Positions 6,930 through 56,217 of a DNA stretch of 64,000 nt are shown one piece after another. How positions within the stretch are numbered: the stretch's first letter is position 1; each line of letters begins with the position of its first letter. A model generated the notes under the pieces. It made no database searches. It was not told the DNA's origin and saw nothing but the letters and a program-made list of their open reading frames with translations. The DNA comes from a virus. A program made the position numbers and the translations under genes. The stretch lies in the IMG/VR virus record IMGVR_UViG_3300019487_000002; one strand, given 5' to 3'.

Positions 6930-8639
6930 TTATATCTCACACGCTCCATTCTTACAAGACAAACTTAGTGCTTCTTCCATGTCGAGCGGTTCAATTGGGC
7001 TTTCTCCTCTACTACCATCGCGGTATAGCGTAACGCCCTTCAAACCACCGACATACTTTCTCAGAATTGGGTCGAGATCGTCTCCCGTATAATTTCTTGG
7101 TAAATTAATCGTCTTTGAGATCGCATTGTCCACGTGTTTCTGACACAGTGCTTGAATTTCCAGATGATCCTTAACCGAAATATCCAAGGCTGATTCGTAA
7201 AGCTTTGCTCTTTTATCTTTTGCATTTCGAAGTAACGCGAACATTGGATGCTCTACAATCTCTTCAACTCTTTTGTCACCAGAATTGAACCGGCGACGAT
7301 ATGCAGCAGTGTACATTGGTTCGATTCCGCTCGTCACACCAGAAACAATACTCGTAGTTCCAGTAGGAGCAATCGTCAAAATCGCGCAGTTACGAATTCC
7401 GTTCTTAAGAATCCTCTCCCGCATACCAATGCTTAAGCTACTCTTACAAAATCCAGATTCAACGAACTTATGTCGATTCAGGGCAGGGAATTGTCCTTTT
7501 TCAATCGCAAGATCGATGCTGGCTTCATATGCCTTCTTTTTTATGAAACGAAAAACTTCTTCAATGCATTCTTTTCCGGCGTCGCTTGTATACTTCTTCC
7601 CCAATAGAATAAGCATATCGTGAAGGCCCATAACACCAAGCCCAATACGACGAACCTGTTTGCAATTTTCTTCAATGGCTTGAAGTGGATAATTATTCAC
7701 GTCGAGAACGTTATCCAAAAATCTTACAGCAGTGGCAATAGAACGGGCGAGTTCTCTCTTGTCCAATTCCCCATTAACAACGAAACGAGGAAGGACAAGC
7801 GCACCCAAATCACAGCAGCCATAGCTCTCAAGCCAAATCTCACCACAGGGGTTCGTGGAGATAAGGGGCTTGTGATAATAAATGTTGTTCATCTCATTGG
7901 CGAGAAATCCATTCAGAATTCCTGGTTCACCACATTGAACAGCATTGGTGAGAATCTTATTCCAAATTTCTCGCGCCGGGATTTCTCCTACTACTTGCTC
8001 GTTCCACAGCAAAGCGTGTTTCTCGTCGCGTTCTACTTTACGCAAAAAAGCATCAATAGATTCGTTCTGAAAAACAGTGCTCACGTTCGCATTGTTCAAC
8101 TGCCCGAGATCAAGTTTCTTATCGAGAAATTCTTTGAGATCAGGATGGTCATGGTTCAGACACAGCATCAATGCCGTTCGCCGTCCACCACCAGCACGAA
8201 TAACCTGTCCAGCGGCGTTGATAATCTCCATGAGAGAGACGGCTCCGGTAGCACGTCCCGAATGACCACGAATTTCGGCACCACGATGGCGAATAGGAGA
8301 AAAATTAATCCCCAGCCCGCCTCCGGTACCAGAAATAATAATAGATTCTTTGACTGTCTGTCCCCACCCTTCACGGGAGTCGTCGGTGGGGGTAACGAAG
8401 CAATTGAGCAATTGCCCCTTTGGTCTCCCAGAGCCGTACCAAATACGACCACCGGGCATAAATCGATTGTTGACTAGTTCATTGTAGAAAAATTCTTCAA
8501 ATTCTTTGACTTTACCATTTACTTCTGCGGAAGCCACAATTCGAGCAAGTCTTCGGCAAGCCTCTTCCCAAGTCTCCTCGTGGTTAATTGCATATCGTTC
8601 ATTAAAAATTCTTTCCGAAAACTCACTCCGTTCGCCCAT
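6930..8639 (-). CDS. nrdJ: ribonucleotide reductase, single-chain class II-like
   Basis: Active-site loop TNPCGEIWLESYGCC; 569 aa in a single chain with no adjacent small subunit; C-terminal CKNGAC pair. Confidence 0.8.
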   Translation of the reverse strand: MGERSEFSERIFNERYAINHEETWEEACRRLARIVASAEVNGKVKEFEEFFYNELVNNRFMPGGRIWYGSGRPKGQLLNCFVTPTDDSREGWGQTVKESIIISGTGGGLGINFSPIRHRGAEIRGHSGRATGAVSLMEIINAAGQVIRAGGGRRTALMLCLNHDHPDLKEFLDKKLDLGQLNNANVSTVFQNESIDAFLRKVERDEKHALLWNEQVVGEIPAREIWNKILTNAVQCGEPGILNGFLANEMNNIYYHKPLISTNPCGEIWLESYGCCDLGALVLPRFVVNGELDKRELARSIATAVRFLDNVLDVNNYPLQAIEENCKQVRRIGLGVMGLHDMLILLGKKYTSDAGKECIEEVFRFIKKKAYEASIDLAIEKGQFPALNRHKFVESGFCKSSLSIGMRERILKNGIRNCAILTIAPTGTTSIVSGVTSGIEPMYTAAYRRRFNSGDKRVEEIVEHPMFALLRNAKDKRAKLYESALDISVKDHLEIQALCQKHVDNAISKTINLPRNYTGDDLDPILRKYVGGLKGVTLYRDGSRGESPIEPLDMEEALSLSCKNGACEI

Positions 8640-12853: not shown

Positions 12854-14467
12854 CTATAACTGTTCGGCGAAGGTACGAATGAATTTCCAATCCTCAATAG
12901 ACTTCACTACGTCGCTATGCCCATTTGCGCCTTGCTGTAGACGCATGAGATACGATGGATGGAAAACGGGAATAAAAGTCACTCCCGGCCAATCATTGTG
13001 GTGATGAGGAATTCCCCGTGCTGAAGAAATTTTCTCGCCTTCGGGGAAAATAGCTTTGAAAGCCTTATCGCCGAGCAAAATTACCAGCTTAGGATTGACT
13101 AAACGGATATGCGCTCTGAGGCGAGGATTACACGCCGCGATTTCCTCTGAATCTGGAGGACGAATTTCGCCCGCTTCATTCGGAAAACACATAACGACAT
13201 TGGCGACGTGAATACTAGAACGCGGGATTCTTGCACACGCCAATAAAACTTTATCGAGGTACTTTCCAGCTTTTCCAATAAAAGGATCACCGTAAAAATC
13301 CTCGCTTGGCCCAGGCCCTTCCCCTAGAGCCATTATATTGGCGCGTTGAGGGCCAGAAAACTTCACAATCTTATTGCGGACTTGGTGTAGCTTGCAGCGT
13401 GTGCAATCACCCCAAATTTCGAATAGTTCGTCAAGTGTCTGTGCTGAGGCAAGCCTATTTTCGAGAGAATTGTCCACCAAATGCGTGCGAAGCTCGTTAC
13501 TGACTTTCTTGAGTTCGTAGGCATCTACGAATTGCTGTACTTCGATCCAGTCGATTGCAGGCGGGGTTTCCCATTGCTGCTTAAAGATTACCCGTTGATC
13601 TTCGTCTAACTGGTCGGGGTGTGACAATACATAGGACAATTCGTATGCCAGCTTGATTTGTTCTTCGTACTCAGGAATACGGCTCATGACAGCGGTTTTT
13701 GGTGATTTCGTCGCCTCTTTAAGCACGTCTTGTACCGTGCCACAATCACGAACCAGCTTAAGGGCTGTTTTTTCGCCGACACCGGGGACACCGGGAATAT
13801 CGTCGTTGGTGTCTCCCATCAACGCCTTAACATCAACCCACTGGCTCGGTTGAATCCCATATTTAGTCACGAAGTCTTGTAACGTGAAATGCTTTTTCTT
13901 AATTGGGTCATATTGCGATACTTTATCAGAAAGTAGCTGGTACAAATCCTGGTCAGAAGACACGACTACCACGTTTGCTGTTTCGCTTAAAGCGTCAGCA
14001 GCAATGCCAATCAAATCGTCACCCTCTACTTCGTGAATAACTAGTTGAGTCACTCCCAGATAGGGAAGAATGCTCTGAATAGCATCCATTTGCGGGAGCA
14101 TTTCTTCTTGGAATACGCGATGGTCTTCGTTTGTGCGACTCTTGTATCGACTCTCTTTATATTGAGAGGGGGTTTCACCAAGAATCTTCGCAGCCGTCGA
14201 TTCTGGATCGCGGCCAGCAAGTCGCTCTAGGCGCTCACGGTAATTCTTAAGAATACGCCGACGGTAGCGGGATTTATGGTCCCAGGCTACATACACTTTT
14301 TCTGGCTCAAACTGTTTTAGGATATGACAAAAGGATGAGAGAAAACCGTGAATAAGTCCCGAAGGAGTCCCATCTTTTGTTTTGAGCGTTTGGCCGCTTG
14401 TTGTGTGCCAAACTCTGTGGATCAGGTGATTTCCGTCGAAAATTACGTTGGTTTTATCGGCGGGCAT
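12854..14467 (-). CDS. 5'-3' exonuclease (FEN) fused to family-4 uracil-DNA glycosylase
   Basis: N-terminal FEN/PIN domain with H3TH motif GVPGVGEKTALKL. C-terminal UDG4 motifs CTRCKL, GEGPGPSEDFYGDPFIGKAGKYL and FHPSYLMR. The start at MPADKTNVIFDGNHL (14467) is preferred over track position 14536. Confidence 0.8.
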   Translation of the reverse strand: MPADKTNVIFDGNHLIHRVWHTTSGQTLKTKDGTPSGLIHGFLSSFCHILKQFEPEKVYVAWDHKSRYRRRILKNYRERLERLAGRDPESTAAKILGETPSQYKESRYKSRTNEDHRVFQEEMLPQMDAIQSILPYLGVTQLVIHEVEGDDLIGIAADALSETANVVVVSSDQDLYQLLSDKVSQYDPIKKKHFTLQDFVTKYGIQPSQWVDVKALMGDTNDDIPGVPGVGEKTALKLVRDCGTVQDVLKEATKSPKTAVMSRIPEYEEQIKLAYELSYVLSHPDQLDEDQRVIFKQQWETPPAIDWIEVQQFVDAYELKKVSNELRTHLVDNSLENRLASAQTLDELFEIWGDCTRCKLHQVRNKIVKFSGPQRANIMALGEGPGPSEDFYGDPFIGKAGKYLDKVLLACARIPRSSIHVANVVMCFPNEAGEIRPPDSEEIAACNPRLRAHIRLVNPKLVILLGDKAFKAIFPEGEKISSARGIPHHHNDWPGVTFIPVFHPSYLMRLQQGANGHSDVVKSIEDWKFIRTFAEQL

Positions 14468-14660
14468 TGCGGCCTTTCTTGCGATTCTTTCGGCACTTAT
14501 CAGTGCAATACTTGCGTACCGTTTGTCCTTTTTCACATTCGGCAGTTATCATAGGAATAATGATTCCACTGTTACACGTCTCACAAATACCAACAACGTC
14601 AACAAGAGGCGACCCTCCTCTGACTGAAACTGGAACCGTTATAAGCTGGTCTTGATTCAT
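14454..14660 (-). CDS. hypothetical Cys-rich protein
   Basis: 68 aa with CETC...CTDKCRKNRKK and a basic tail. Confidence 0.5.
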   Translation of the reverse strand: MNQDQLITVPVSVRGGSPLVDVVGICETCNSGIIIPMITAECEKGQTVRKYCTDKCRKNRKKGRNARR

Positions 14661-19583: not shown

Positions 19584-20885
19584 ATGAGTCAGCTAGGGAA
19601 ACTGAGAATTTCGGAGGCGAAGGACACCATTCGGCTGTTCCTCAATCCGCCTCAGCAGGTGGTGCCGTTCATGCGGTCAACGCCTGGGGTCGGCAAGTCT
19701 GCCATTGTGTACCAGCTTGCCGTTGATAAGTGCGCCGATTATACTCTCGGCGCGGAGAAGTGTGCGGGGTGCCGTGAGCGCACGGGCGATCCGACCAAGC
19801 ACACTGAGGGTTGCGCGGCGTACCACAGCCCCGAGGGCTGCGCGCTGTGCATCAAGGGCGTCCTGTCGGTATCTTACGATAATGGTGTGCCCAGCATCGC
19901 GGTTGGTCCCGCACCCATGCACATTCGCGTGGACGATATCCGGCTGTCCCTTTTCGATCCTATCGAAGTCAAGGGCCTTCCGCTGGCCGACGCCGATACG
20001 AATTCGACACGCTGGCTCAAGCCGGAATACCTGAACACGAATGACGCCGTTTACTCGATCCTGTTTCTGGACGAGTTTTCCAATGCGGCGGCCGCCGTTC
20101 AGAATGCTGCGCTCCAGCTTGTGTACGACAAGCGGAGCCACAAGCACGCTCTCTCGAAGCGGTGCATGATCGTGCTCGCGGGTAACACCGAGAGTGATGG
20201 CACGCACGTCGCCAAGATTTCGAGCGCGCTCAACAACCGCGTTGCACACTTGGAGATTGAGGCCGATGCCGACGATTTCCTCAAGTGGGCGCGGGATAAT
20301 TACATTCGGATGGAGATTATCGGTGCCATCAGTACGTATCCCGACCTTCTTCCGACGAAGTTTGACAAGAACCTTGCCGCGCAGCCTACGCCGCGCACCT
20401 GGGAAATGCTTTCCCGGATTATCGACCAGACTGGCGCAAAGACGGAGAAGGACATTCGCCGGCTCGCTCTCCCGCTGATTGGGCATGGGGCGACCACGAA
20501 TTTCATGGCCTTCCTCGGTCAGTTTCAGAAGGTGAAGCCTGAGGAAATCATCAACGAGGGCAAGATGCCTACCTACGATACTGACGATATCAGCCAGCGG
20601 TACGCTTATTCTTGCGCCGTGTCGCATTGGGTCAAGACCCACGCCAAGGAAGTCAAGGACAAGCATCAGGCAGAGAACATCTTCAAGTTTCTCAAGACGC
20701 TCAAGCAGATTGAGCTTCGCGTCAAGACCTTGCAGGACATGAGCCTTGCAACCGAGCCACGGCTGGTGGCTTTCTTTCGTCAGAATGCGAAGGATGACTT
20801 CAACGAGCTTATGTCCCGCCTTTCGGTCGCCGTAGTGGACGCGAAAGAGAAAGATTCCGCAGCCGCAAAGAAGGTCAAGAAGTAA
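19584..20885 (+). CDS. AAA+ ATPase, MoxR-like, with Cys-rich insertion
   Basis: Walker A STPGVGKS and Walker B ILFLDEFSNA. A Cys-rich segment (CAGCRERTG..CAAYHSPEGCALC) is inserted after the P-loop. SD AAGGGAGA lies upstream. Confidence 0.75.
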   Translation: MSQLGKLRISEAKDTIRLFLNPPQQVVPFMRSTPGVGKSAIVYQLAVDKCADYTLGAEKCAGCRERTGDPTKHTEGCAAYHSPEGCALCIKGVLSVSYDNGVPSIAVGPAPMHIRVDDIRLSLFDPIEVKGLPLADADTNSTRWLKPEYLNTNDAVYSILFLDEFSNAAAAVQNAALQLVYDKRSHKHALSKRCMIVLAGNTESDGTHVAKISSALNNRVAHLEIEADADDFLKWARDNYIRMEIIGAISTYPDLLPTKFDKNLAAQPTPRTWEMLSRIIDQTGAKTEKDIRRLALPLIGHGATTNFMAFLGQFQKVKPEEIINEGKMPTYDTDDISQRYAYSCAVSHWVKTHAKEVKDKHQAENIFKFLKTLKQIELRVKTLQDMSLATEPRLVAFFRQNAKDDFNELMSRLSVAVVDAKEKDSAAAKKVKK

Positions 20886-20894
20886 GAACCTCAT

Positions 20895-20924
20895 GGCAAC
20901 CCCGGGAATCGTCCCGGGGTTGCC
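20895..20924 (+). terminator. perfect 13-bp G+C-rich hairpin, possible U-tract-less terminator
   Basis: GGCAACCCCGGGA, loop ATCG, then TCCCGGGGTTGCC, 10 nt after the ATPase stop. No T-run follows. Confidence 0.4.
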
Positions 20925-20942
20925 TGGAAATGAGAAAAGAAA

Positions 20943-21071
20943 ATGAATAAGCGAATCGCCAAGAAGATTGTCAGCAAGACTTTCAATCGTGATGGCTCGC
21001 TCAATCGTACCCCGTCGTGCTATTACACGAACGACCAGATCAAGCGATCAAGCGAGCACTGCGAAAGCTAG
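20943..21071 (+). CDS. hypothetical small protein
   Basis: 42-aa ORF (MNKRIAKKIV...), not in the track because it is below the 60-aa cutoff. Confidence 0.35.
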   Translation: MNKRIAKKIVSKTFNRDGSLNRTPSCYYTNDQIKRSSEHCES

Positions 21072-21079
21072 GTAAGTAA

Positions 21080-21352
21080 ATGGACCTTGAAGATATTCTT
21101 CATGGAACCCCAAAATGGAACGACGTTTCATTTTATTTCCAGAATGGGGAATTCTTCGAGGAGCACTATCTGGTAGAGGCTATCACAAAGCATCTGCTAA
21201 CCCCACCCCAGCGTGCTTGGCTGCATCGTGAGGCTCTAAGCATAGAAGATATGCTTAATGGCCGAATTGAAGGCAATCTTCGCCAAAAGTACGCACAGCA
21301 AATTTTTGACGAATGGAACCAAAAGCTGGGGTTTAAGCATTTCGGGGCTTGA
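21080..21352 (+). CDS. hypothetical protein
   Basis: 90-aa ORF. Confidence 0.5.
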   Translation: MDLEDILHGTPKWNDVSFYFQNGEFFEEHYLVEAITKHLLTPPQRAWLHREALSIEDMLNGRIEGNLRQKYAQQIFDEWNQKLGFKHFGA

Positions 21353-21377
21353 TTTTCAAATACAATCCGGGTATAAT
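21349..21377 (+). promoter_or_regulatory. sigma70-type promoter
   Basis: TTGATT-N17-TATAAT, then 6 nt to ATG 21384. The -35 overlaps the upstream TGA stop. Confidence 0.6.
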
Positions 21378-21383
21378 ACAACC

Positions 21384-22712
21384 ATGAGCACAATGAACCA
21401 CGGGCACGGGCAGCGTCATGAGCAGCTACACCTTCCGATGCCTTCGGATGCAGAGAAGCCGGCGCTAATCGACAAGGCGGCGGAATCGATCTCTCACAGC
21501 ATCATTCAGCTTCTCACCCGTCAGCCGTTTTTCGGCCAGTTGCTTTGCGGCCTTCGCCTCGTTCCTACGTGGTCAATGCCGACGATGGGTGTAGACGGCA
21601 TCAATCTTTTCTTCAATCCGTCATTTACGCTCGCGCTTTCTAAGCCACAGCGACGCGGCGTGCTGTGCCACGAGGTTATGCACCTTGCGCTTAGCCACAT
21701 TACTCGGCGTCGTCAGCGTCAGGACCGGCTCTGGAATGCGGCGTGCGATTACGCGGTCAACCTGATTGTGAAGGACGATCTTGACCTTGAGCTACCGAAT
21801 TGGGTTCTCTATCGCCAGGATTTCAAGGAAATGTCCGCAGAGGAGATTTTCCGTAAGCTGTGCGAGGAAAAGGCCAGCGGCGGTATGAAAGGCAAGCAGA
21901 AGGGTCAGGGAGGCCAGGGCCAGAAGGGTCAGGGCGGCGGTCAGGGTCAGCAGGAAGATGGCGACGGTGAGGATGATCCAAATTGCCCATACTGCCAGAA
22001 TGGTGACGGGGACGGGGACGGCCTCGATTCTTTTGACACGCACATTTTCAATCCTGACCTAGACGAAGATGCGTTGACCGACAAGCTGGTCCGTGCTGCC
22101 GAGCAGGCAAAGCGCCGTGGGCGCCTTCCCGCTGGGATTGAGCGGATTATCGACAAGCTGCGTGAAGCCAAGGTTGATTGGCGGACGCTGATTCGCGGCC
22201 GTGCGCTGGATATCTTCCAGAAAGTTGATTATCATGGCGAGCTACGTTCGCTCTTGACGGGTTCCGTCCTGGGCGGTCGCACGTGGCTTCCCGGCCTTGC
22301 GAAAGAGGAGGCGTCGTTGCTGGTTCTCTGCATCGATACGTCGGGCTCTATCAGCCCCGAGATTCTCAATGCATTCGCAGCCGAAATCAAAGAAGTAATC
22401 ACGATGGCAGATAAGACCATCATCATGACGTGCGACGCGGACGTGCATGAGTGTGTCGAGGTTGGCAAGTTTGACCAAATATTTGATGCCGTCAAGTTCA
22501 AGGGCGGCGGCGGTACTGACTTCCGCCCGGCCTTCGACAAGATTCATAAGATGGGGCTCAATCCCAATCTGTTTGTGTACTTCACGGACGGATATGGGTG
22601 CTTTCCTGACTCAATGCCGCAGTATCCGGTTCTGTGGGCCTTCACGAAGGATCACCAGCCGGCCCCGTGGGGCGAGAGTGTCACGGTAGATGCCGCGACG
22701 TATGAAAACTAG
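21384..22712 (+). CDS. metallopeptidase-like (DUF2201-type) / VWA-domain protein
   Basis: HEVMHLALSH motif, a G/Q/D-rich linker, and a C-terminal VWA fold with LVLCIDTSGS (DxSxS). This is the usual partner of MoxR ATPases. ATG 21384 rather than track position 21258. Confidence 0.75.
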   Translation: MSTMNHGHGQRHEQLHLPMPSDAEKPALIDKAAESISHSIIQLLTRQPFFGQLLCGLRLVPTWSMPTMGVDGINLFFNPSFTLALSKPQRRGVLCHEVMHLALSHITRRRQRQDRLWNAACDYAVNLIVKDDLDLELPNWVLYRQDFKEMSAEEIFRKLCEEKASGGMKGKQKGQGGQGQKGQGGGQGQQEDGDGEDDPNCPYCQNGDGDGDGLDSFDTHIFNPDLDEDALTDKLVRAAEQAKRRGRLPAGIERIIDKLREAKVDWRTLIRGRALDIFQKVDYHGELRSLLTGSVLGGRTWLPGLAKEEASLLVLCIDTSGSISPEILNAFAAEIKEVITMADKTIIMTCDADVHECVEVGKFDQIFDAVKFKGGGGTDFRPAFDKIHKMGLNPNLFVYFTDGYGCFPDSMPQYPVLWAFTKDHQPAPWGESVTVDAATYEN

Positions 22713-22890: not shown

Positions 22891-23257
22891 GGAAACTTTT
22901 ACATGGTACGTGGACGCGGAGCAACCAAAGAAGGGCTTTCAAAGCCGGCATGTCGCTACCGTGGTAATCCGTCGTAAGGACGGGCTGGATGGAACGCCGG
23001 TTTATTACGTCGGCGTGGCTTCTAAGCACCCAAAGGATAAGCTGCCATTTGTGAAGTCCGAAGGCCGCACGCTGGCTACCACTCGCGCCGTGCATGCTAA
23101 TGCGTGCTTCTCAATGGACGAGCTTCTCCGGGAGACACGACGGGCACTGTGTCGTGAAGTCAAGGACACACAGACGCTTTTGCTTATCGATAGCAAGCGC
23201 CTGTTTGAACGCATTAAGTTTGTACTGGAGAAGTACAATGAACGAGCGGCGTCGTAA
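22883..23257 (+). CDS. hypothetical protein
   Basis: 124-aa ORF. Confidence 0.55.
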   Translation: MLKETFTWYVDAEQPKKGFQSRHVATVVIRRKDGLDGTPVYYVGVASKHPKDKLPFVKSEGRTLATTRAVHANACFSMDELLRETRRALCREVKDTQTLLLIDSKRLFERIKFVLEKYNERAAS

Positions 23258-23402
23258 GACTAAGATCATTGTCAGTGCGCGGTTTGACGAAGCCAAAAAG
23301 AAGGCCGTAGTCGAGTATCCCGACGAGAATCAACCAGAGCAGGTTTTTTTCTGCCCCGATTGTGGAGAGCCTGCCGTTCCTGACCATCGTTGCCCCGCGT
23401 GA
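23238..23402 (+). CDS. hypothetical small zinc-ribbon protein
   Basis: 54 aa starting MNERRRK and ending CPDCGEPAVPDHRC. Confidence 0.4.
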   Translation: MNERRRKTKIIVSARFDEAKKKAVVEYPDENQPEQVFFCPDCGEPAVPDHRCPA

Positions 23403-24214
23403 AGGATTCCCTTGGCGATAGGATGAAGGGATATGAACGGGCGCACCTTTCGCGTGCGTTGCCGGGTATCCCTGTTTGCGCCCGACTAGATGGCCGAGCT
23501 TTCCACAGTTGGTGCAGCGATTTGCACCGCCCGTGGGATAACAGCTTCCATCAGATTATGGACCGAGCTACGGCTTTTCTTGTAGAACAGACTAATGCCA
23601 AGATCGGCTATACACAGAGCGATGAAATTACGCTGATTTATTACGCCGATTCTCCTGAATCGCAAATATTCTTCGACGGAAAGATTCAGAAGATGACAAG
23701 CGTTCTAGCGTCCATGTGTACGGCAAAGTTCAACGAGGCTGCACGCCTTTTTCCTGATACTACACATAAGCCTTTAGCATTTTTTGATTGCCGTGTGTGG
23801 CAAGTCCCCAATCTCCGGGAAGCCGTCAGTGTACTAATTTGGAGAGAGGCAGACGCTCGACGCAATTCGATTATGATGGCGGCGCAAAGCTTCTATAGCC
23901 ATAAACAGCTTCTTGGGAAAAGTTCAAAAAAACAGCAGGAAATGCTACACGAAAAAGGCCTCAACTGGAGCAAGGAATACCCTGACCGATTCAAGCGCGG
24001 CGCATATTTTGCTCGCCGCATGGGTTATCGCGTAATGACCATGAGCGAGTTCTCACACATTCCTGAGGCACACCGCCCTGCGGCTCCACCTTTGGTTGAG
24101 CGCCGCGTCGTGAAGAACTTGCAGCTTGGTCCGATGCGACGTATCGTCAATAGTATTGACGTTGTTTTCAACGAAGCGGAGCCGGTGTATGGAACCTGTA
24201 ACGAGCACCCATAG
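23390..24214 (+). CDS. Thg1-like protein (tRNA-His guanylyltransferase family, 3'-5' nucleotidyltransferase)
   Basis: GDRMKGYE, ARLDGRAFH, YTQSDEITL, FDCRVW and WREADARRNS line up with Thg1/TLP conserved blocks. The start is TTG 23390 or GTG 23399, upstream of the first ATG. Confidence 0.8.
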   Translation: MPRVKDSLGDRMKGYERAHLSRALPGIPVCARLDGRAFHSWCSDLHRPWDNSFHQIMDRATAFLVEQTNAKIGYTQSDEITLIYYADSPESQIFFDGKIQKMTSVLASMCTAKFNEAARLFPDTTHKPLAFFDCRVWQVPNLREAVSVLIWREADARRNSIMMAAQSFYSHKQLLGKSSKKQQEMLHEKGLNWSKEYPDRFKRGAYFARRMGYRVMTMSEFSHIPEAHRPAAPPLVERRVVKNLQLGPMRRIVNSIDVVFNEAEPVYGTCNEHP

Positions 24215-25268
24215 AGCCGATATTGTAGAAGTTGTGCTTGGGCCGCACCCCAATGCCGATAGCCTTTCTATCGTCAAAATCTACGACGGTGGTTTTCAGG
24301 TTATTGTCAAAACCGAAGATTGGGTAGAGCGATATCGAGGCGTTTACATTCAGCCAGATAGTATTGTCCCCGACAAGCCTGAATTTGCCTTTCTAGAAAA
24401 GCGGCGAATCAAAGCCAAGAAATTGCGAGGCGAATGGTCCGCTGGCCTTCTTGTTCCTGTTCCACCGGAGTTTGAGCATTTGGAAACGGGCACTGATTTG
24501 GCTCCGCTCATGGGGATCGAACATTATGAGCCACCGCCGTCCATGCCCGGCCTAACGGGTGGTCTGACCGATTCGAGTCCAAAGTTCATCCGCAAGCAGC
24601 GAAAAGATGGAAAGTATGATGCGGAATTTATCGGCTTTGAATACCCGAAATACGATGTAGAGTCTTTTCGGAAATATGGAAAGCGGGTATACGAACCGGG
24701 TGAAATCATTTGGATAACAGAAAAGATACACGGCTCTAACGGTCGTTGGCTTTTCGACGGTAAACGGTTTTATTGTGGGAGCCGCACCGAATGGAAGAAA
24801 GAAGACCCACAGAACCTTTGGTGGCGTGCCCTCAATTATTACCCCACTCTTCAAGAATTCTTGAAGGCAAATCCTGGCGTGGCGGTGTATGGAGAAGTAT
24901 ACGGACAGGTACAGGATTTGAAATACGGAGTCCCAAAAGGGGAAATTCGAGTCGCAGTGTTTGATATCTTGCGGGAAGGAAAATGGATAAACGCGCTGGA
25001 GGCATGGAAGATAGGAAAGGATAATGGCTTGCCTTGGGTTCCCCTTCTTATGGGTGCAACCTATGACAGTCTCCCCGAGCCTGACTTGCTGCCTCGATTC
25101 GATTTTGACATGCTGATTGAAATGGCAGAAGGCCCGAGCCAGATTCCCGACGCGAACCATATTCGAGAAGGTATTGTCGTGAAGCCATGGGAAGAACGTT
25201 GGCACCCTAAAATGCAAGGACGTGTCTGCACCAAAATTGTAGGCAATGGGTATTGGGCAAGAAAGTAA
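24189..25268 (+). CDS. ATP-dependent RNA ligase with N-terminal OB-fold tRNA-binding-like domain
   Basis: Motif I ITEKIHGSN (KxHGxN, as in Rnl2/Rnl5-type ligases). The N-terminal HPNADSLSIVKI...IQPDSIVP resembles the Trbp111/EMAPII-type OB domain. ATG 24189. Confidence 0.75.
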   Translation: MEPVTSTHRADIVEVVLGPHPNADSLSIVKIYDGGFQVIVKTEDWVERYRGVYIQPDSIVPDKPEFAFLEKRRIKAKKLRGEWSAGLLVPVPPEFEHLETGTDLAPLMGIEHYEPPPSMPGLTGGLTDSSPKFIRKQRKDGKYDAEFIGFEYPKYDVESFRKYGKRVYEPGEIIWITEKIHGSNGRWLFDGKRFYCGSRTEWKKEDPQNLWWRALNYYPTLQEFLKANPGVAVYGEVYGQVQDLKYGVPKGEIRVAVFDILREGKWINALEAWKIGKDNGLPWVPLLMGATYDSLPEPDLLPRFDFDMLIEMAEGPSQIPDANHIREGIVVKPWEERWHPKMQGRVCTKIVGNGYWARK

Positions 25269-38641: not shown

Positions 38642-38928
38642 TGGCACGCACGAGTAAATTTACTGTCGTTACCAACCGGAACGACCCCAGCACAGTAAGA
38701 ATGTTTTCAAAGCTGGAGGAAGCACAAGCGTTTGTAGGACCAGAATATGACCAAAAGGGGTTTGTATTAACCACCTTTGAGAAAAAGACCGAAACCTTCT
38801 TTAGTGTCGTAGAAGATGAAACTGAAAGCCCAATGTCTGCGTGGGATCGTGAAGAATTGGCACAGGAAGAACTTCAAGAAGAACAGCGCGCAGAGGATCG
38901 GAGAGCCCGTCAATTTGTGAGGGAGTAA
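38641..38928 (+). CDS. hypothetical protein
   Basis: 95-aa ORF. Confidence 0.5.
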   Translation: MARTSKFTVVTNRNDPSTVRMFSKLEEAQAFVGPEYDQKGFVLTTFEKKTETFFSVVEDETESPMSAWDREELAQEELQEEQRAEDRRARQFVRE

Positions 38929-39413
38929 TGAAAGACCTACAGTATCTCCGTCAGGCTTATGAAGAAGCCAAGTGCTTAAGCACTGACCCCAGTACCCAAA
39001 ACGGCTCGGTCCTCGTCAATCCAATCGGTATTGTGATTGCTACTGCCGCCAATCACTTCCCTTACGGTGTAAAAGAAACACCGGAACGTTGGGATCGTCC
39101 GTTGAAATATCACTACGTCGAGCATGCTGAGAGGAATGCTCTCTACAAAGCCGCTCGGATGGGCCATAAGACAGAAGGGGCAACGATGTATGTTCCTTGG
39201 TTTGCCTGTGCGGATTGCGCTCGCGGAATTATACAGTGTGGGGTAGAGGAAGTGGTAGGACACCAGAAAATGTACGACGGCACACCTGACCGATGGAAGG
39301 AAAGTATCCACGCGGCGTGGGAAATGCTGGACGAAGCGGGAGTTAAACATCGTCTTGTGGTGGCGGATTTCGGAATTAAAATTCGATTCAATGGTGAGGA
39401 ATGGGTCTCCTAA
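38928..39413 (+). CDS. dCMP deaminase
   Basis: VEHAERNAL (HAE) and PWFACADCARGI (PCxxC zinc site). Confidence 0.8.
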   Translation: MKDLQYLRQAYEEAKCLSTDPSTQNGSVLVNPIGIVIATAANHFPYGVKETPERWDRPLKYHYVEHAERNALYKAARMGHKTEGATMYVPWFACADCARGIIQCGVEEVVGHQKMYDGTPDRWKESIHAAWEMLDEAGVKHRLVVADFGIKIRFNGEEWVS

Positions 39414-39634
39414 TGACTCACGTTACCGTCTTGATTGAAGAAGACAATCACGGTGTCGATAAACTTTACCTTCCACGCAAGACCAAGATTGCTCGATTGG
39501 CATTCCCCAGCGATAGGAAGGTAGATACAGTGCGCGTGGGATGCGACGACGGTAGTTACATTTTCGCTAATATTATGAATATGGTCCCAGAGGATGAAAA
39601 TGCCAGTAAGCCGGAACAAAAGAAAAGACGGTAA
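39413..39634 (+). CDS. hypothetical protein
   Basis: ATG 39413 overlaps the deaminase stop (TAATG). Confidence 0.5.
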   Translation: MTHVTVLIEEDNHGVDKLYLPRKTKIARLAFPSDRKVDTVRVGCDDGSYIFANIMNMVPEDENASKPEQKKRR

Positions 39635-39723
39635 GCGTCATAAGAATAAGCGCCGACATTTGAGCACGCAGGAAATTATCCTTGCGAATCTCATTCGAGT
39701 CGGTAAAATTAAGACAGAGAAAA

Positions 39724-40263
39724 ATGAAGAAGCGGTCGCCAGTATTGACGCCGCTCCTAAGGAAGAACATGCTCACGAAGTCTGCGAAAGCGAAGGGACG
39801 ACGGCTCCAGCAAGCAGTAGTCCAGAAGATACGAGTAACGCATAATCTATCTGCCGACGACGTAGCCTCAACCACTATGGGTGAATCGGGCTGCGATGTT
39901 AAGCTTTCGAGTGCTGCCAAAGCGAAATTCCCTTTTGCGGTGGAATGTAAGAATCAAGAAAATCTTAATATTTGGGCTGCTCTCCGTCAAGCTGAAGACC
40001 ACGCTACCAAAAGTAACACGGTTCCTCTAGTTGTCTTTACTCGCAACCGCTCGCAAGTATATGTAGCGTTACCTTTAGATGATTTCCTTCTTATCCAAGG
40101 CAGTTCCCAACTCACGATAGTTCCAGGTGGATATAAAGAAGAATCTCTTTCGGGATTCCCCGGATATGCGGGTGATCCGCCAACCGCTTCCAATTACGAA
40201 GAAATGATGGAAAGGTCTCATAGAGAACTAAATAAAGTCAAATATAACAAGGAGACTAAGTAA
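39724..40263 (+). CDS. PD-(D/E)XK nuclease, resolvase-like
   Basis: GCDVKL...FAVECKN gives the D...ExK motif. The start is uncertain (TTG 39682, ATG 39724 or ATG 39769). Confidence 0.5.
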   Translation: MKKRSPVLTPLLRKNMLTKSAKAKGRRLQQAVVQKIRVTHNLSADDVASTTMGESGCDVKLSSAAKAKFPFAVECKNQENLNIWAALRQAEDHATKSNTVPLVVFTRNRSQVYVALPLDDFLLIQGSSQLTIVPGGYKEESLSGFPGYAGDPPTASNYEEMMERSHRELNKVKYNKETK

Positions 40264-40733
40264 TGCCCTACGTTCCCAGCGAAAAAACGAATCCTCCCGC
40301 AACAGATAGGAAGCAATTAGAACCATTTGCAGAATCCGTTGCCGATACAATTGCAGGCGTCGCAGCTAAGTATGGCTATGAAGGTGCCTTTGCCGGCGAG
40401 CTTAATTATTTCCTAACACGCTTGTTAAACCACCTTCCGCGTTCTTTGGTAAACGCGGGGGTTCTCAAAGAAGAAATACGGTATTGGATACAGCCACTTA
40501 TGTACGGTGTTCTTTTGGACGTAGCTCTAGAACACAAGCGTCGAGTTAACGTATCTTATGAAGCGGCTCAAATCGTTAAGTCTGGAGATTGTTACGACAC
40601 TCCATACTACACTCGATTGGTTGAAGTGGTTGACCAAGACGGAAATCATATGGGGTACCAGGAGGTTATGTTGAAGCGCGGTGAAGACACTCTAACGAAA
40701 GATGTAGTTGGTAAAATTACGGTGAGGAAATAA
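40263..40733 (+). CDS. hypothetical protein
   Basis: 156-aa ORF. Confidence 0.6.
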   Translation: MPYVPSEKTNPPATDRKQLEPFAESVADTIAGVAAKYGYEGAFAGELNYFLTRLLNHLPRSLVNAGVLKEEIRYWIQPLMYGVLLDVALEHKRRVNVSYEAAQIVKSGDCYDTPYYTRLVEVVDQDGNHMGYQEVMLKRGEDTLTKDVVGKITVRK

Positions 40734-40734
40734 C

Positions 40735-41196
40735 ATGAAGGTATATCTTGCAGGTACCATTGCTACTACTGATGACTATTTCCAGAGATGGCGTCTAGAT
40801 GCGTGTAAGTTTCTCAAGAATCATGGGGTGATGCCCCTGTCGCCGCTGTCTCAAAAAGAAGCGGGAACATCACAAGATGGAGGGATTACATCAGCCATTC
40901 CGAACGATGCCATTCTTATGCGAGACTATGCAATGGTGAAATCTTCTCACTTAGTCCTTGCGAATTTGAAGATCATTGGCGACAAAGGAAAAGTAGAAAA
41001 GCCAATCATTGGTACTTTCTTCGAAATGGCGTGGGCTTGGGAAGCGAATAAACCTATTATTGCAGTTGTAGAACCTGACAATTATTTATTCAATATGCAC
41101 CCGTTCCTAGCAAAGACTATAACACAAAAGTTCCCTACTCTCGAAGATGCACTGGATAATATCGTGAGCTACTGGAACTGGCATTATGAAAAGTAA
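40735..41196 (+). CDS. nucleoside 2-deoxyribosyltransferase-like protein
   Basis: MKVYLAG N-terminus and GTFFEMAWAWEANKPIIAVV. Confidence 0.65.
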   Translation: MKVYLAGTIATTDDYFQRWRLDACKFLKNHGVMPLSPLSQKEAGTSQDGGITSAIPNDAILMRDYAMVKSSHLVLANLKIIGDKGKVEKPIIGTFFEMAWAWEANKPIIAVVEPDNYLFNMHPFLAKTITQKFPTLEDALDNIVSYWNWHYEK

Positions 41197-46074: not shown

Positions 46075-46845
46075 GTGCCAAAAATAAGTTCTCACTGCTC
46101 TATTTGTAAATTACCTACCGCCGACCGTGATGGTTTTCACACTGACAAATGGGTCAATCATTTTACCCACGCTCAATTGGCGACCAAGTATTTTCCACAG
46201 AGGTCTATAGCTACTGTTCTCAAGTCTTGTACTGTCCACTTCGAGAAACATTTTCCCTTTGACGAATTCGTCAATGAAATCGTTGACGAAAAGACAAAAG
46301 CAGATAGCACTAATCTTCCCACTATATCAGCCACAGAAAGAGCAATATTTACTGAAGCGTATCAATCGCGCTTAGATTCAGTTCGAACCATCGAGTCCAT
46401 GATGCGGACGCTGATGGATAGAGCAAACGTCATCCAGGAAGAATGGAATAAGGTTCACATTGCCACGAAATGTGAGGAATGCGGTCGAGATGATACTGGA
46501 CCCAACCTTGTGAAAATTCTCGCAGTATTCCGCGAGCTTCGTGAACAGGTAGACCAATGGACTAAGATGCGGAATCCCATGGGGGCCGTTAATAAGATTG
46601 CCGAGAAGGCATTCGTAACGTTCGTGGAAGAAATGACTGACGTGTACGTCTTAGTCATGTCTGACAAGTCTCGACTGATTCGAGATGCGGTAAATGACTT
46701 TCTTGCTGAGAAAATAAATCAAGGCATGTTCGCCAAGCGTATAACGGAAGCATTAGACGATTTTGGCGGAGATAGGATTTCGTCGTCGGCCCAAGAGAAG
46801 TACCAGAAGATATTTTCAACGGTGATGAAGGAGTTGAAGTTGTAA
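46075..46845 (+). CDS. hypothetical protein
   Basis: 256-aa ORF with a GTG start and no SD. Confidence 0.55.
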   Translation: MPKISSHCSICKLPTADRDGFHTDKWVNHFTHAQLATKYFPQRSIATVLKSCTVHFEKHFPFDEFVNEIVDEKTKADSTNLPTISATERAIFTEAYQSRLDSVRTIESMMRTLMDRANVIQEEWNKVHIATKCEECGRDDTGPNLVKILAVFRELREQVDQWTKMRNPMGAVNKIAEKAFVTFVEEMTDVYVLVMSDKSRLIRDAVNDFLAEKINQGMFAKRITEALDDFGGDRISSSAQEKYQKIFSTVMKELKL

Positions 46846-48047
46846 TGGCGAAGAAGACGATAGCGGTTTACGCAGACACCCCCACGGTCTGCACCGGATT
46901 TGGAAACGTTACCAAAAGTATTTTCACTAATCTTGGTGATGAATACGAGATTAAAATTGTAGGTATTAACTACAATGGGTATCCTCATAATTACCCTAAT
47001 CTGAAGATTTACCCAGCGTGTAATCCCTTGTATGTAGGCGGCGGCGTAGATTACTACGGTAGAGAACACCTAAAGCGTTGGGTAGAAACTGAACACTTTG
47101 ATCTATTCTTCATGCTCAACGACGGATGGCTTCTTCGTGATTTTGCACCAGACGTGGTAGAACGCATCAAGAAGAAAGGGAAAAGTATTCCTACTGTCTG
47201 TTATTTCCCTATCGATTGCGATGAGACCGAAGGCGCGTGGTATGATTGGATGATGGACGTGGAAGTCCCTGTGACGTACACAGAATTCGGCCTGAACATC
47301 GTGAAGAAAATATTTCCTGCTCTGGGACTAAGAACAAAAGTAATCCCTCACGGCGCGGACGTTGACACGTTCAAGCCAATCCCACGCGGTTCCGATCAGA
47401 AAGTTGCTCATTATCGCAATCTCGTAGGGGGAGAGTTCGCGTTCATCAACGTCAACAAGAATCAGGTTCGTAAGAACGTACCCGGGTCTATTGCGGCCAT
47501 GCGAGAGTACCAACGCATGATTGATAATGGCGATACTATGGTTCTTCACATGAACGAAGAAGAAGGTGTGGGATGCCACGTTCGAATAATTGCGAACAGC
47601 CTCGAATTTCAGAAGAAGAACACAATCCGTATTTCCCCTGCTCGATTGGATGAGGAACATCTTAACTGCATGTATAACGCTTGCCAAGTAGCTATGACTA
47701 CTTCCGCAGGTGAAGGATGGGGATTGAGTATTTCCGAAGCTATTTGTGCGGGGATACCAGTTATTGCTCCTCGGCACACGTCTTTCCCTGAGGTAGTCCG
47801 TGAGTTTGGATATCTCTATGATCCTGGGATGCGTCATTGTGCATTACCTCTTAGTACGGATAGAAGCAATTGGCGATATTACGCCGATCCAAAAGTCGTC
47901 GCTGAAGCGATGCTCGACGTGCGTAAGAACTATGTCCGCTACAAGGAAATGGCCCTTAAAGGTCGGAAGTGGTATGAAGAAAACCGGACATGGAAACATC
48001 ATATCGTCCCTGAATGGAGAGAGTTGTTTGCTCAACTCATGTCATAA
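46845..48047 (+). CDS. GT-B glycosyltransferase (family 1/4-like)
   Basis: SAGEGWGLSISEAICAGIPVIAP (E-x7-E motif). Confidence 0.8.
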   Translation: MAKKTIAVYADTPTVCTGFGNVTKSIFTNLGDEYEIKIVGINYNGYPHNYPNLKIYPACNPLYVGGGVDYYGREHLKRWVETEHFDLFFMLNDGWLLRDFAPDVVERIKKKGKSIPTVCYFPIDCDETEGAWYDWMMDVEVPVTYTEFGLNIVKKIFPALGLRTKVIPHGADVDTFKPIPRGSDQKVAHYRNLVGGEFAFINVNKNQVRKNVPGSIAAMREYQRMIDNGDTMVLHMNEEEGVGCHVRIIANSLEFQKKNTIRISPARLDEEHLNCMYNACQVAMTTSAGEGWGLSISEAICAGIPVIAPRHTSFPEVVREFGYLYDPGMRHCALPLSTDRSNWRYYADPKVVAEAMLDVRKNYVRYKEMALKGRKWYEENRTWKHHIVPEWRELFAQLMS

Positions 48048-48211
48048 TGAATACAAACGACATTAGAACTAGAATTCTAGGCACTAGCAAAGGCGAGCCA
48101 TCATACGACGGTATGATGATCCTACTCCTCTGCGATATCTCCGATAAGCTTTCCGAATTGCTGGATGCTACATCACACTCCCATGACTGTGATGGAGAAA
48201 TCGGCTCTTGA
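48047..48211 (+). CDS. hypothetical small protein
   Basis: 54 aa; TAATG junction. Confidence 0.4.
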   Translation: MNTNDIRTRILGTSKGEPSYDGMMILLLCDISDKLSELLDATSHSHDCDGEIGS

Positions 48212-48236
48212 CTTGCTTCCCCTAACCGTCTAAGAT
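48208..48236 (+). promoter_or_regulatory. sigma70-type promoter
   Basis: TTGACT-N17-TAAGAT, then 7 nt to ATG 48244. Confidence 0.5.
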
Positions 48237-48243
48237 TGCCTCT

Positions 48244-48387
48244 ATGGCAAAGACCCATACCTCACGCGAGGAGTTCTGGGCTACCGTCCAGGCTCTTGTT
48301 ACCGACTATCAGAACAAGCAAGACGACGCAGGAAAGTTTCTAGCCAAGCTGGCGGAAGTCCGCGACGAGCCTGTCCGCGAAGTGTAA
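48244..48387 (+). CDS. hypothetical small protein
   Basis: 47 aa; its stop overlaps the next start. Confidence 0.45.
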   Translation: MAKTHTSREEFWATVQALVTDYQNKQDDAGKFLAKLAEVRDEPVREV

Positions 48388-49025
48388 TGCCAAAGCCATA
48401 CACGCTCGTTACCGCTGATAAGTCAGTCTATCACAGCGATGAATGGGGCGTACTTCATCAAATTGACGCCAAGCCTATAGCGTATGATGCAGCTTACCTT
48501 ACGCAGCATACCTCTAAGCCAAACTACAAAGAGAATTCATTAATCCTTAATGGTCTACGCCTGGGCTTCCTAGTCGGAAGCATGGGCTATGTGCCACGTA
48601 TGTTACTAGATTATGGCTACGGTGACGGGAGTTTTGCCGCTCTGGCCGCACGAATTGTGCCATACGTTTACGGCTACGATATAGGCGATTATCCAATACA
48701 CTCAACGTGCTGCCGAACCAAGAATCCCAAAACATTACACGTTGAAGTGGTCACGTATTGGGATTCATTAGAGCACGTTCCTGATCTAGAAGTGGCTCTT
48801 GATACGCCGGCTAAATATGTCGCTGTCAGTGTCCCGTGCCTGCCGCATGTAAGCGTCTTCGAGGATTGGAAACACCGCCGCCCCAACGAACATCTTCATC
48901 ATTTCACAGAGAATTCACTCAAAGCCTGGATGGCGTGCCACGGTTGGGTGCATCGTGCGAGTGCCCCTCTTGAAGAAGCTATTAGAGATGATATAATCAC
49001 GGCACTTTTTCAAAGGAGAGACTAA
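48387..49025 (+). CDS. class I SAM-dependent methyltransferase
   Basis: Motif I LLDYGYGDGSFAALA; 212 aa. Confidence 0.7.
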   Translation: MPKPYTLVTADKSVYHSDEWGVLHQIDAKPIAYDAAYLTQHTSKPNYKENSLILNGLRLGFLVGSMGYVPRMLLDYGYGDGSFAALAARIVPYVYGYDIGDYPIHSTCCRTKNPKTLHVEVVTYWDSLEHVPDLEVALDTPAKYVAVSVPCLPHVSVFEDWKHRRPNEHLHHFTENSLKAWMACHGWVHRASAPLEEAIRDDIITALFQRRD

Positions 49026-49201
49026 TGCCAACAAGAAAGAATTTCCGGGAGCGCCGACAGAAGCGCCATGAGGAAGCTGAAAAGCGCGCCAAGGCTCGCA
49101 TTGAGCGTACCGAAGCGGCACAGATAGAGCTGCTCAGGAAGCGTCCTGGCGCCTCGTATAAAGAAATTGCTCGCCTAACGGTCAAAGCGTATGAAGCGTA
49201 A
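49025..49201 (+). CDS. hypothetical basic protein
   Basis: 58-aa R/K/E-rich ORF. Confidence 0.4.
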   Translation: MPTRKNFRERRQKRHEEAEKRAKARIERTEAAQIELLRKRPGASYKEIARLTVKAYEA

Positions 49202-49304
49202 GGGCATTTTTATGCCTTCGCCCGTTCCTTGCCCATACTGTGAGGCCAAGACATATCCGCCAAAGTATGAGCAGCATAAATCCGACTGTCCGATCTCTAG
49301 GCCG

Positions 49305-51655: not shown

Positions 51656-51688
51656 GTTATATGATATAACTGTTTTGAATGAACAAGC

Positions 51689-51717
51689 TTGACTAATTTT
51701 TTACACACGTGTATATA
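51689..51717 (+). promoter_or_regulatory. sigma70-type promoter
   Basis: TTGACT-N17-TATATA, then 6 nt to ATG 51724. Confidence 0.6.
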
Positions 51718-51723
51718 TTCATT

Positions 51724-56165: not shown

Positions 56166-56181
56166 CTAAAGCACTCGCGTA

Positions 56182-56210
56182 TTGACTTAATGACCAATAA
56201 CCCTTATAAT
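56182..56210 (+). promoter_or_regulatory. sigma70-type promoter with the GCGTATTGACT motif
   Basis: GCGTA-TTGACT-N17-TATAAT, then 7 nt to ATG 56218. Confidence 0.65.
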
Positions 56211-56217
56211 ACACGAC

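Follow-up and report, generated by a model that had tools for sequence, protein, structure and literature searches.

In a 64,000-nucleotide stretch of viral DNA (IMG/VR virus record IMGVR_UViG_3300019487_000002; "the window" below always means this whole stretch), we found a gene for a Thg1-like protein (TLP), a 3′-5′ nucleotidyltransferase of the bacterial repair type, which overlaps a gene coding for an ATP-dependent RNA ligase of the Rnl5 family. By analogy with their characterized homologs, we lean modestly toward the view that the two enzymes belong to a phage RNA-repair toolkit that would counter nucleases acting on tRNA or other structured RNA, within which they are facultative neighbors that might act in sequence. 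What is new at this locus is the tight, apparently translationally coupled TLP–Rnl5 pairing that is kept in its nearest relative; associations of this kind have already been predicted computationally.

An overlapping TLP–Rnl5 gene pair

The pair, its parts and the small open reading frame (ORF) that precedes it are laid out as follows:

23238–23402, + strand: small upstream ORF, 54 aa, with one CxxC and a distal Cys (gene call in L083/L084)
23390–24214, + strand: TLP, a 3′-5′ nucleotidyltransferase of the bacterial repair type (PF04446, phrog_4717, PDB 4kgk)
24178–24181, + strand: GGAG, a Shine-Dalgarno-like element within the TLP coding region (sequence; alignment with the relative L253)
24189–25268, + strand: Rnl5-family (DraRnl/NgrRnl, TIGR02306) ATP-dependent RNA ligase (PF21189 and PF09414; NgrRnl 5cot/6vt*)
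24189–24563, + strand: N-terminal OB domain of the ligase, residues 1-125, with an HPNADSL motif (PF21189, 3.9e-11; AlphaFold2 model; Foldseek)
24705–25241, + strand: nucleotidyltransferase (adenylyltransferase) domain of the ligase (PF09414 on residues 173-351)

An earlier note on this DNA, made from the letters and their ORFs, had described the two principal ORFs; both are present on the + strand with an overlap of 26 nt, and all the motifs that it quoted occur in the translations. The TTG start at 23390 yields a TLP of 274 aa ending in a TAG stop (24212-24214), while the start used in a public gene call, GTG 23399, yields 271 aa and overlaps the TGA stop of the 54-aa upstream ORF in the form GTGA. 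Searches of Pfam and PHROG with that small ORF recovered no match. The ligase, with its ATG start at 24189, extends to 25268 (359 aa plus stop); a longer form starting at TTG 24126 is unlikely because its homologs begin at the position equivalent to the ATG. The GGAG element lies 7 nt 5′ of this ATG and is kept in L253, whose ligase is 90% identical. The TLP and ligase genes probably share a transcript, and their translation is probably coupled. Just 5′ of the ligase start, a hairpin resembling a terminator (24145-24171) scored no better than shuffled sequences (z = -0.30), and the counts of predicted promoters and terminators across 18.5-29.5 kb equaled the shuffled expectation. No near-identical DNA turned up when the locus was compared with 50,697 phage records.

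The TLP is an intact member of the Thg1/TLP superfamily

The family assignment proposed in the earlier note holds under profile search: the protein matches the Pfam Thg1 profile PF04446 over positions 2-130 of 130 (5.6e-28; 97.9 bits with a cut-off of 29.2) and PHROG 4717 (1.9e-76). Its best match in the PDB is the TLP of B. thuringiensis (BtTLP; 4kgk, 2.3e-37, aligned residues 6-207), and matches to eukaryotic-type Thg1 enzymes are at 1e-11 or weaker. In an alignment of 69 sequences, comprising the window TLP, 67 viral TLPs and BtTLP, the carboxylates D34, D78 and E79 are invariant in 68-69 of the 69. They correspond to BtTLP D30, D75 and E76, the three conserved carboxylates that are D29, D76 and E77 in hTHG1 (PMC3701042). 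Other invariant columns are E16, R32, S77, K101, R135, R152, D155 and N159; among these, E16, R32, R135 and K101 are the conserved equivalents of residues involved in nucleotidyl transfer and binding of the nucleoside triphosphate (BtTLP E12, R28 and R131; ScThg1 K96). Thus, judged from its profile matches and residues, the TLP is an intact, bacterial-type member of the superfamily.

As for the positions that serve the activation step, S77 (BtTLP S74) is conserved, and the position of BtTLP K43 is occupied by R47. In BtTLP, the K43A substitution lowers adenylylation about 10-fold and leaves guanylylation unchanged (PMC3701042). This column holds R in 33 and K in 31 of the 69 TLPs, and since the two are about equally common the arginine is probably normal variation. 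We had entertained R47 as the sign of an adenylylation-defective TLP dependent on the ligase, and dropped this idea as R is as common as K in phage TLPs and the majority of these lack an Rnl5 in their vicinity.

The position of HINNLYN, an anticodon-recognition motif specific to eukaryotic Thg1 (PMC6471195), reads READARRNSIMM (also given as WREADARRNSIMM) in the window protein. The lack of this eukaryote-specific motif points to a repair-type TLP rather than a strict tRNA-His guanylyltransferase, despite the usual database label. The window TLP shares with BtTLP (4kgk/4kgm) and other bacterial and archaeal TLPs the fold family, the three carboxylates, the arginines and lysine that bind the nucleoside triphosphate and the absence of HINNLYN. 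By this homology its activity would be expected to be like theirs, namely templated 3′-5′ repair of 5′-truncated tRNA. It differs from BtTLP in being phage-encoded, in a C-terminal extension of ~60 aa common to a subset of phage TLPs, in having R for the ATP-positioning K43, as do about half of the phage homologs, and in having C42 for T38.

The ligase and its OB domain

The second ORF, which the earlier note had taken for a ligase with a motif I lysine, is retrieved by the Pfam RNA_ligase profile PF09414 (4.3e-20, residues 173-351 of 359) and by PF21189, "PHA02142 OB-fold" (2.7e-10, residues 18-91). Its only solved relatives are the structures of the Naegleria gruberi enzyme NgrRnl (5cot/6vt*; about 2e-10), to which it aligns over residues 28-323. 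Public sources name its homologs "RNA ligase (TIGR02306 family)", which is the DraRnl family. We built one alignment of 126 ligase sequences and a separate one of 42 homologs. The motif I lysine K179 (NgrRnl K170) is invariant in 126/126, and the residues of motifs III (E236), IV (E327) and V (K349) are invariant or nearly so. These correspond to NgrRnl E227, E312 and K326, the last equivalence being assigned by motif position, as the pairwise alignment stopped at NgrRnl residue 323. In NgrRnl, K170, E227, E312 and K326 are all essential (PMC7261155). The architecture consists of an N-terminal OB domain followed by a nucleotidyltransferase domain, with no C-terminal appendage. Accordingly, as read from its profile matches and motifs, the ligase is an intact Rnl5-family member, and the residues on which the earlier assignments depended, the carboxylates D34, D78 and E79 of the TLP and K179 of the ligase, are all in place.

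With NgrRnl (5cot) and DraRnl the window ligase shares the embellished N-terminal OB domain joined to a nucleotidyltransferase domain, the lack of a C-terminal appendage and the residues of motifs I, III, IV and V. It differs from them in its ~25% identity, in a KxHG form of motif I found across its clade, in being borne by a phage and in overlapping a TLP gene. NgrRnl and DraRnl seal nicks of the RNA-OH/pDNA type (PMC4408790, PMC7261155), and deletion of DraRnl sensitizes D. radiodurans to ionizing radiation (PMC5397189, in excerpt).

The earlier note had likened the N-terminal domain to the OB fold of Trbp111 and EMAPII and, on that ground, regarded the ligase as targeted to tRNA. The resemblance stands. 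In searches with the N-terminal 124 residues, PF21189 is the best profile (3.9e-11) and PF01588, tRNA_bind, comes second (E=0.021). An AlphaFold2 model of residues 1-125 (pLDDT 80) retrieves in Foldseek first the N domain of NgrRnl (TMq about 0.7) and thereafter almost exclusively OB domains of the tRNA_bind type. These include PheRS-beta (6oz5, E = 5.7e-4), MetRS-C (5h34), YtpR (9a77_B), Trbp111 (3ers and 8vtz), Arc1p-C (4r1j) and the EMAPII-like domain of TyrRS (1ntg), with probabilities of 0.5-1.0 (0.8-1.0 for several of them) and TM-scores of 0.36-0.55. Moreover, an HPNAD-L motif is nearly invariant across the ligase clade, and two of the ligase homologs are automatically annotated as "tRNA-binding EMAP/Myf-like protein". 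The likeness to the tRNA_bind OB domains (Trbp111, EMAPII/Arc1p-C, PheRS-beta B2, MetRS-C; PF01588) lies in an HPNAD(S/K)L-type motif and in the Foldseek matches. In contrast to those domains, the ligase OB domain stays under the Pfam gathering score (15.3 bits with a cut-off of 27, so that the profile threshold is not reached), gives low TM-scores, and in Rnl5 contacts ATP. In NgrRnl, this N domain touches the gamma-phosphate of ATP, and both adenylylation of the ligase and its sealing of nicks depend on it (PMC7261155, PMC4408790). As the OB domain is family-defining in every Rnl5 and its shown role lies in ATP contact and adenylylation, its presence is nothing peculiar to this locus and no evidence of tRNA targeting, and this part of the earlier proposal is not supported; we found no nucleic-acid-bound Rnl5 structure or binding data.

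Linkage of the two genes across genomes

Relatives of Rnl5 were gathered from a protein database and by an alignment-based scan of metagenomes; a scan of viral contigs with the ligase as a single protein, whose patterns were too specific, gave no confirmed relative. TLP loci were surveyed separately, in 80 IMG/VR viral loci with 6-kb flanks and in 80 bacterial and archaeal loci. The pair is linked in eight loci (L253, L089, L181, L019, L039, L044, L074 and L151). Three of these carry close relatives of the window ligase: in L253 the two genes share 32 nt and retain the GGAG-ATG junction; in L089 (ligase 54% identical) three genes separate the ligase from a TLP 1.8 kb upstream, in the same synteny from the ATPase and DUF2201 genes to PolA; and in L181 (ligase 50% identical) it lies one gene upstream. 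In four of the 80 viral TLP loci (L019, L039, L044 and L074), an Rnl5 was confirmed within ~2 kb of the TLP, and it belongs to a divergent subclade. The Rnl5 proteins of these four and of contig L151, which derives from a metagenome-assembled genome, are divergent (26-28% identity), and both gene orders occur. The phage-like contig L151 is also the sole locus with an adjacent Rnl5 among the 80 bacterial and archaeal TLP loci, which are mostly from Myxococcota.

A rough chance expectation, which assumes that ~10% of large phages have an Rnl5 and that it falls within a 12-kb window with a 6-8% chance, is ~0.6 loci in 80, to be compared, without a formal test, with the 4-5 observed. The enrichment has to be read as a rough estimate, because a background control built on ribonucleotide-reductase loci gave just 3 loci. 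Thus the genes, whose linkage beyond the window was decisive for the earlier proposal, are linked in some other genomes, and the surveys taken together indicate that this linkage is recurrent and facultative, the two being neighbors rather than obligate partners.

Genes for homing endonucleases (HNH/endonuclease VII-like, NUMOD3) are found between TLP and Rnl5 in L039 (6876-7346) and L074 (4192-4974), which suggests that the pair was once directly adjacent there. Some other candidates were set aside: the Rnl5 matches in L078 and L133 are weak tblastn matches that lacked confirmation in an ORF and were left uncounted, and in Burkholderia phage FLC9 a possible ligase of 380 aa, encoded two genes beyond the TLP on its downstream side, was rejected as tail-tube-like. 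The closest cellular TLPs (44-49% identity; L093-L172) are mainly from Myxococcota (Nannocystaceae, Kofleriaceae, Bradymonadia) and Planctomycetota (Gemmata). BLAST detected no phrog_547 phosphoesterase, AAA_33 kinase or Rnl1 within 8 kb of them.

Recurrent neighbors point to a probable role in RNA repair

The 80 viral TLP loci contributed 1,237 ORFs, whose clustering uncovered several recurrent neighbors. RlaP, the RNA-ligase-associated Pol-beta nucleotidyltransferase, occurs in six loci (directly adjacent to the TLP in L004 and L041), and a phosphoesterase of phrog_547 lies within 6 kb of the TLP in six viral contigs (L005, L019, L034, L074, L079 and L082). They are followed by a Band_7 protein (five loci), Rnl5, another metallophosphoesterase, NAD synthase and an NMNAT-like cytidylyltransferase (four loci each) and an AAA_33 P-loop kinase (three). 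In L019, these come together as an almost complete cassette of RlaP, phosphoesterase, Rnl5, TLP and kinase. This cassette and the recurrence of the neighbors support a role of phage TLPs in RNA repair in general, and they agree with the linkage of Thg1 to kinase, Macro and ligase genes reported by Anantharaman et al. 2010 (PMC2904730, in excerpt).

Rnl5 genes elsewhere likewise adjoin genes for RNA repair, namely those for Rnl1, the phrog_547 phosphoesterase, RlaP, cREC and kinase. For instance, on the related 185-kb contig L091 a cREC_REC domain protein (7528-7872) adjoins Rnl5, and an Rnl1 gene lies 5 kb further. This domain has been predicted to process cyclic phosphates and to be linked to RNA ligases (Iyer et al. 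2021, PMC7824862, in excerpt).

Proposed function and alternatives

The toolkit that we propose would comprise the TLP, Rnl5, a phrog_547 phosphoesterase and an Rnl1 ligase flanked by genes for tRNA-Lys(UUU) and tRNA-Leu(CAA), the last components lying elsewhere in the window (see below), and it would serve to offset the damage that host nucleases do to tRNA or other structured RNA. On the model of its homolog BtTLP, the TLP would activate a 5′-monophosphate with ATP or GTP, or use a 5′-triphosphate, and then add Watson-Crick-templated nucleotides in the 3′-5′ direction, rebuilding a recessed 5′ strand such as that of a truncated acceptor stem (on 5′-end repair by TLPs: PMC3701042; PMC3061083, the latter in excerpt). 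By homology to NgrRnl and DraRnl, the Rnl5 ligase would reseal 3′-OH/5′-PO4 nicks in duplexes that have an RNA 3′-OH strand. The two activities might follow one another, reverse-polarity gap filling being completed by nick sealing. No healing of the ends would be needed, because metal-dependent nucleases are expected, from established two-metal chemistry, to leave 3′-OH/5′-PO4 ends. The TOPRIM domain of the retron Eco2 nicks double-stranded tRNA acceptor stems (PMC12916289); plausible substrates therefore exist.

Several observations weigh against this proposal. Motif I of the ligase is KIHGS, that is KxHG rather than KxDG, with H181 where NgrRnl has D172. This departure is nonetheless clade-wide, H occupying the position in 122 of the 126 members, and as D172A has no gross effect on ligation by NgrRnl the aspartate is not essential to Rnl5 membership. 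The physiological substrates of Rnl5 enzymes are not known (PMC4408790), and our literature search found no experimental work on a phage TLP, a phage Rnl5 or the pair. Among the relatives, L092 (ligase 47% identical) has the same synteny with the TLP absent, and no TLP was found near the ligase in L091, L252 or L254. The pair is missing in about 75 of the 80 viral TLP loci, and just 1 of 80 metagenomic Rnl5 loci, 28 of which are at least 8 kb long, has a TLP (L181). Where TLP and Rnl5 occur together in a cultured phage (CcrColossus, five Brevundimonas phages, LR756511 and LR745208), they are 40-400 kb apart. In the window itself, the pair sits amid genes for DNA ligase, PolA, RecA and SbcCD, a setting that also fits a role of the ligase on DNA or RNA-DNA hybrids. 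Finally, Pfam searches found no homolog of polynucleotide kinase or RlaP in the window (14-64 kb; the first part, 1-14 kb, is partly annotated).

These data bear unequally on the alternatives. The idea closest to the earlier note, which saw the TLP and ligase as a module, is that of a dedicated two-enzyme system in which obligate partners restore the 5′ ends or acceptor stems of tRNAs and the OB domain directs the ligase to tRNA. The overlap and ribosome-binding-site arrangement kept in L253, the recurrence of the pair in eight loci, which span two Rnl5 subclades and either gene order, and an OB domain of the tRNA_bind structural type speak for it. Yet the survey of co-occurrence does not bear out a conserved module: the TLP is absent from the syntenic L092 and accompanies just one of the 80 Rnl5 loci from metagenomes, the ligase is present at no more than ~5% of viral TLP loci, and in cultured phages the genes are far apart. 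Furthermore, the OB domain is common to all Rnl5 with a shown role in ATP binding and adenylylation, and rebuilding of a terminal 5′ end by the TLP needs no ligase. We therefore regard obligate partnership as unlikely. The opposite possibility, also improbable in our view, is that the two genes have unrelated functions and have come together through clustering of accessory genes, with Rnl5 sealing 3′-OH RNA/5′-PO4 DNA nicks in replication or repair and the TLP maintaining tRNA 5′ ends. This would accord with the position of Rnl5 in four relatives, where the ATPase/DUF2201 pair and DNA polymerase A flank it whether a TLP is there or not, with the DNA ligase, PolA, RecA and SbcCD genes nearby, and with the RNA-OH/pDNA nick sealing of NgrRnl and DraRnl and the radiation sensitivity upon loss of DraRnl (PMC4408790, PMC7261155; PMC5397189 in excerpt). 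However, it sits poorly with the placement of Rnl5 elsewhere beside the RNA-repair genes for Rnl1, phrog_547, RlaP, cREC and kinase, and with a proximity of TLP and Rnl5 in divergent contigs that exceeds the rough chance value (no formal test).

A third alternative concerns the TLP by itself, as a tRNA-His guanylyltransferase that adds G-1 to a phage tRNA-His. Such is the usual annotation of the phage homologs (phrog_4717), and this phage does encode tRNAs; nevertheless, the best structural relative is the repair-type BtTLP, HINNLYN is absent, no tRNA-His occurs in the window or 6 kb beyond (70 kb examined), and G-1 is genomically encoded in most bacteria (PMC3061083, in excerpt). In addition, both phage tRNAs have perfectly paired acceptor stems. 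We regard this function as very improbable. The perfect pairing also led us to reject a role of the TLP in editing 5′ acceptor-stem mismatches in the phage tRNAs, as in amoebal mitochondria.

Within the favored proposal of a toolkit of facultative neighbors, one may picture a more specific pathway, which we consider distinctly unlikely in this full form, for filling and sealing the gaps in double-stranded tRNA stems nicked by metal-dependent (TOPRIM-type) defense nucleases. Such nucleases include the effectors of retron Eco2, PARIS and the OLD family. First, the TLP would lengthen the 5′-phosphate end in the 3′-to-5′ direction over the missing nucleotides, with the opposite strand as template; Rnl5, anchored to the tRNA through its tRNA_bind-like OB domain, would afterwards close the nick left in the duplex. 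If true, this would be a phage counter to acceptor-stem- and stem-nicking immunity that is free of healing enzymes.

Relation to earlier predictions and significance

The earlier note had put forward the TLP–ligase pairing as a different repair logic that it did not know to have been characterized; in its general form the idea was anticipated. Anantharaman et al. 2010 described neighborhoods in which Thg1 is accompanied by polynucleotide kinase, Macro and RNA ligase genes, and raised the possibility that the Thg1 of phage 201phi2-1 performs RNA repair against host defenses (PMC2904730, in excerpt). Iyer et al. 2021 placed Thg1 among the enzymes of jumbo phages that restore 5′-end nucleotides, with a sporadic occurrence (PMC7824862, in excerpt). 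Thus, both the link of Thg1 to kinase and ligase in repair and the repair role of phage Thg1 had been predicted from comparative genomics by 2010 and 2021, respectively. Our locus resembles these cases in the linkage of Thg1 to repair genes, there polynucleotide kinase, Macro and RNA ligase, and in the notion of phage Thg1 as a 5′-restoring counter-defense. It differs in that the excerpts concern bacterial neighborhoods and sporadic jumbo-phage occurrences, and single out neither Rnl5 nor an overlapping, coupled pair. Annotated TLPs are present in at least 162 phage records and ligases of the Rnl5 type in at least 226.

Immune systems that cleave tRNA are being discovered at a rapid pace (among them PrrC, PARIS, retrons and Cas12a3), and some of them nick the acceptor stem. 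The known answers of phages are substitute tRNAs and repair of the anticodon loop by Pnkp/Rnl1. To these a phage TLP would add the repair of the 5′ strand or 5′ end. The window shares with the T4 Pnkp–Rnl1 system the principle of a phage-encoded counter to tRNA damage, and itself carries an Rnl1-like ligase by a tRNA-Lys(UUU) gene. The TLP–Rnl5 pair is nonetheless different: T4 heals anticodon-loop breaks with 2′,3′-cyclic-PO4/5′-OH ends by a kinase-phosphatase and seals them with Rnl1, whereas the pair comes without a healing enzyme and would act on 5′-PO4/3′-OH ends, duplex nicks or missing 5′ nucleotides. The locus and L253 offer a compact test case for the roles of phage TLPs and for Rnl5 substrates, within an existing prediction and not as a new concept.

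Genomic context and a second RNA-repair cassette

Apart from the pair, the window codes for a phosphoesterase and a second set of RNA-repair genes:

54535–55065, + strand: Metallophos_2/phrog_547 phosphoesterase, 176 aa (PF12850, 7.6e-10; phrog_547, 1.4e-46)
56092–58746, + strand: second RNA-repair cassette, not part of the pair (ARAGORN, Rfam, PF09511), composed of the next four features
56092–56166: tRNA-Lys(UUU) (ARAGORN and Rfam)
56272–57003: weak Metallophos-like ORF
57136–58299: T4 Rnl1-like ligase (PF09511, 2e-12)
58662–58746: tRNA-Leu(CAA) (ARAGORN and Rfam)

The phosphoesterase is 30 kb from the pair and near the Rnl1 cassette; it belongs to the same family as those of L019, L074 and L079 (PHROG) and is a candidate 3′-end healing enzyme. 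Of the kinase and phosphatase functions of the T4-type pathway, only phosphoesterases were found in the window, namely this protein and the ORF at 56272-57003, and the AAA_33 kinase of L019 has no BLAST match in the window. The order tRNA-Lys, Rnl1, tRNA-Leu is kept in the related 139.5-kb phage contig L252 (2761-5065), where Rnl1 is 60% identical. Neither the tRNA-Lys(UUU) nor the tRNA-Leu(CAA) gene encodes CCA. Both PrrC and PARIS classically attack tRNA-Lys(UUU), so that the cassette looks like the joint replacement and repair of one target.

The window belongs to an uncultured phage, and its proteins are also found on a 148.5-kb ENA contig, a 32-kb contig, a Logan run and a JGI metagenome; two of its proteins had no exact match in a contig index. 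At about 53264-53391, the window bridges two contigs of ERZ27251177, where k141_473305 (148.5 kb) ends and k141_128790 (32 kb) begins, so that the phage genome is probably at least 180 kb. The pair is located in a region devoted to replication and nucleotide metabolism. Genes typical of large phages surround it, coding for thymidylate synthase, a primase-helicase, ribonucleotide reductase, a fusion of 5′-3′ exonuclease and uracil-DNA glycosylase and a terminase-like protein. The fusion is a single protein of ~540-560 aa (12854-14536, - strand; PF02739 and PF01367 for the exonuclease, PF03167 for the glycosylase). The terminase-like protein (49305-51655, - strand) is a 630-aa MJ0330_N protein with a PHROG match to the terminase large subunit (1.6e-32), whose gene overlaps one for endonuclease VII; it recurs near Rnl5 in L091 and L254. 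Upstream of the pair, at 19584-22712, lie a MoxR-like AAA ATPase (phrog_1297) and its partner, a DUF2201 metallopeptidase/VWA protein labeled 'HNH endonuclease' by PHROGs (phrog_1314); the two are kept upstream of the Rnl5–PolA block in L083, L089, L092 and L253.

A cluster of nucleotide- and DNA-modification genes (38928-41196 and 46845-52089) codes for two dCMP/MafB19-type deaminases, a PDDEXK nuclease, a DUF6899 protein, a nucleoside 2-deoxyribosyltransferase, a 'GT4-conflict' glycosyltransferase and a methyltransferase, and by its composition hints at modified DNA bases. Toward the end of the window, a full-length DnaJ homolog (59040-60020; J domain, CXXCXGXG zinc finger and C-terminal domain) is followed by sugar-modification genes for a DegT aminotransferase, a glycosyltransferase and a KAS III-like protein.

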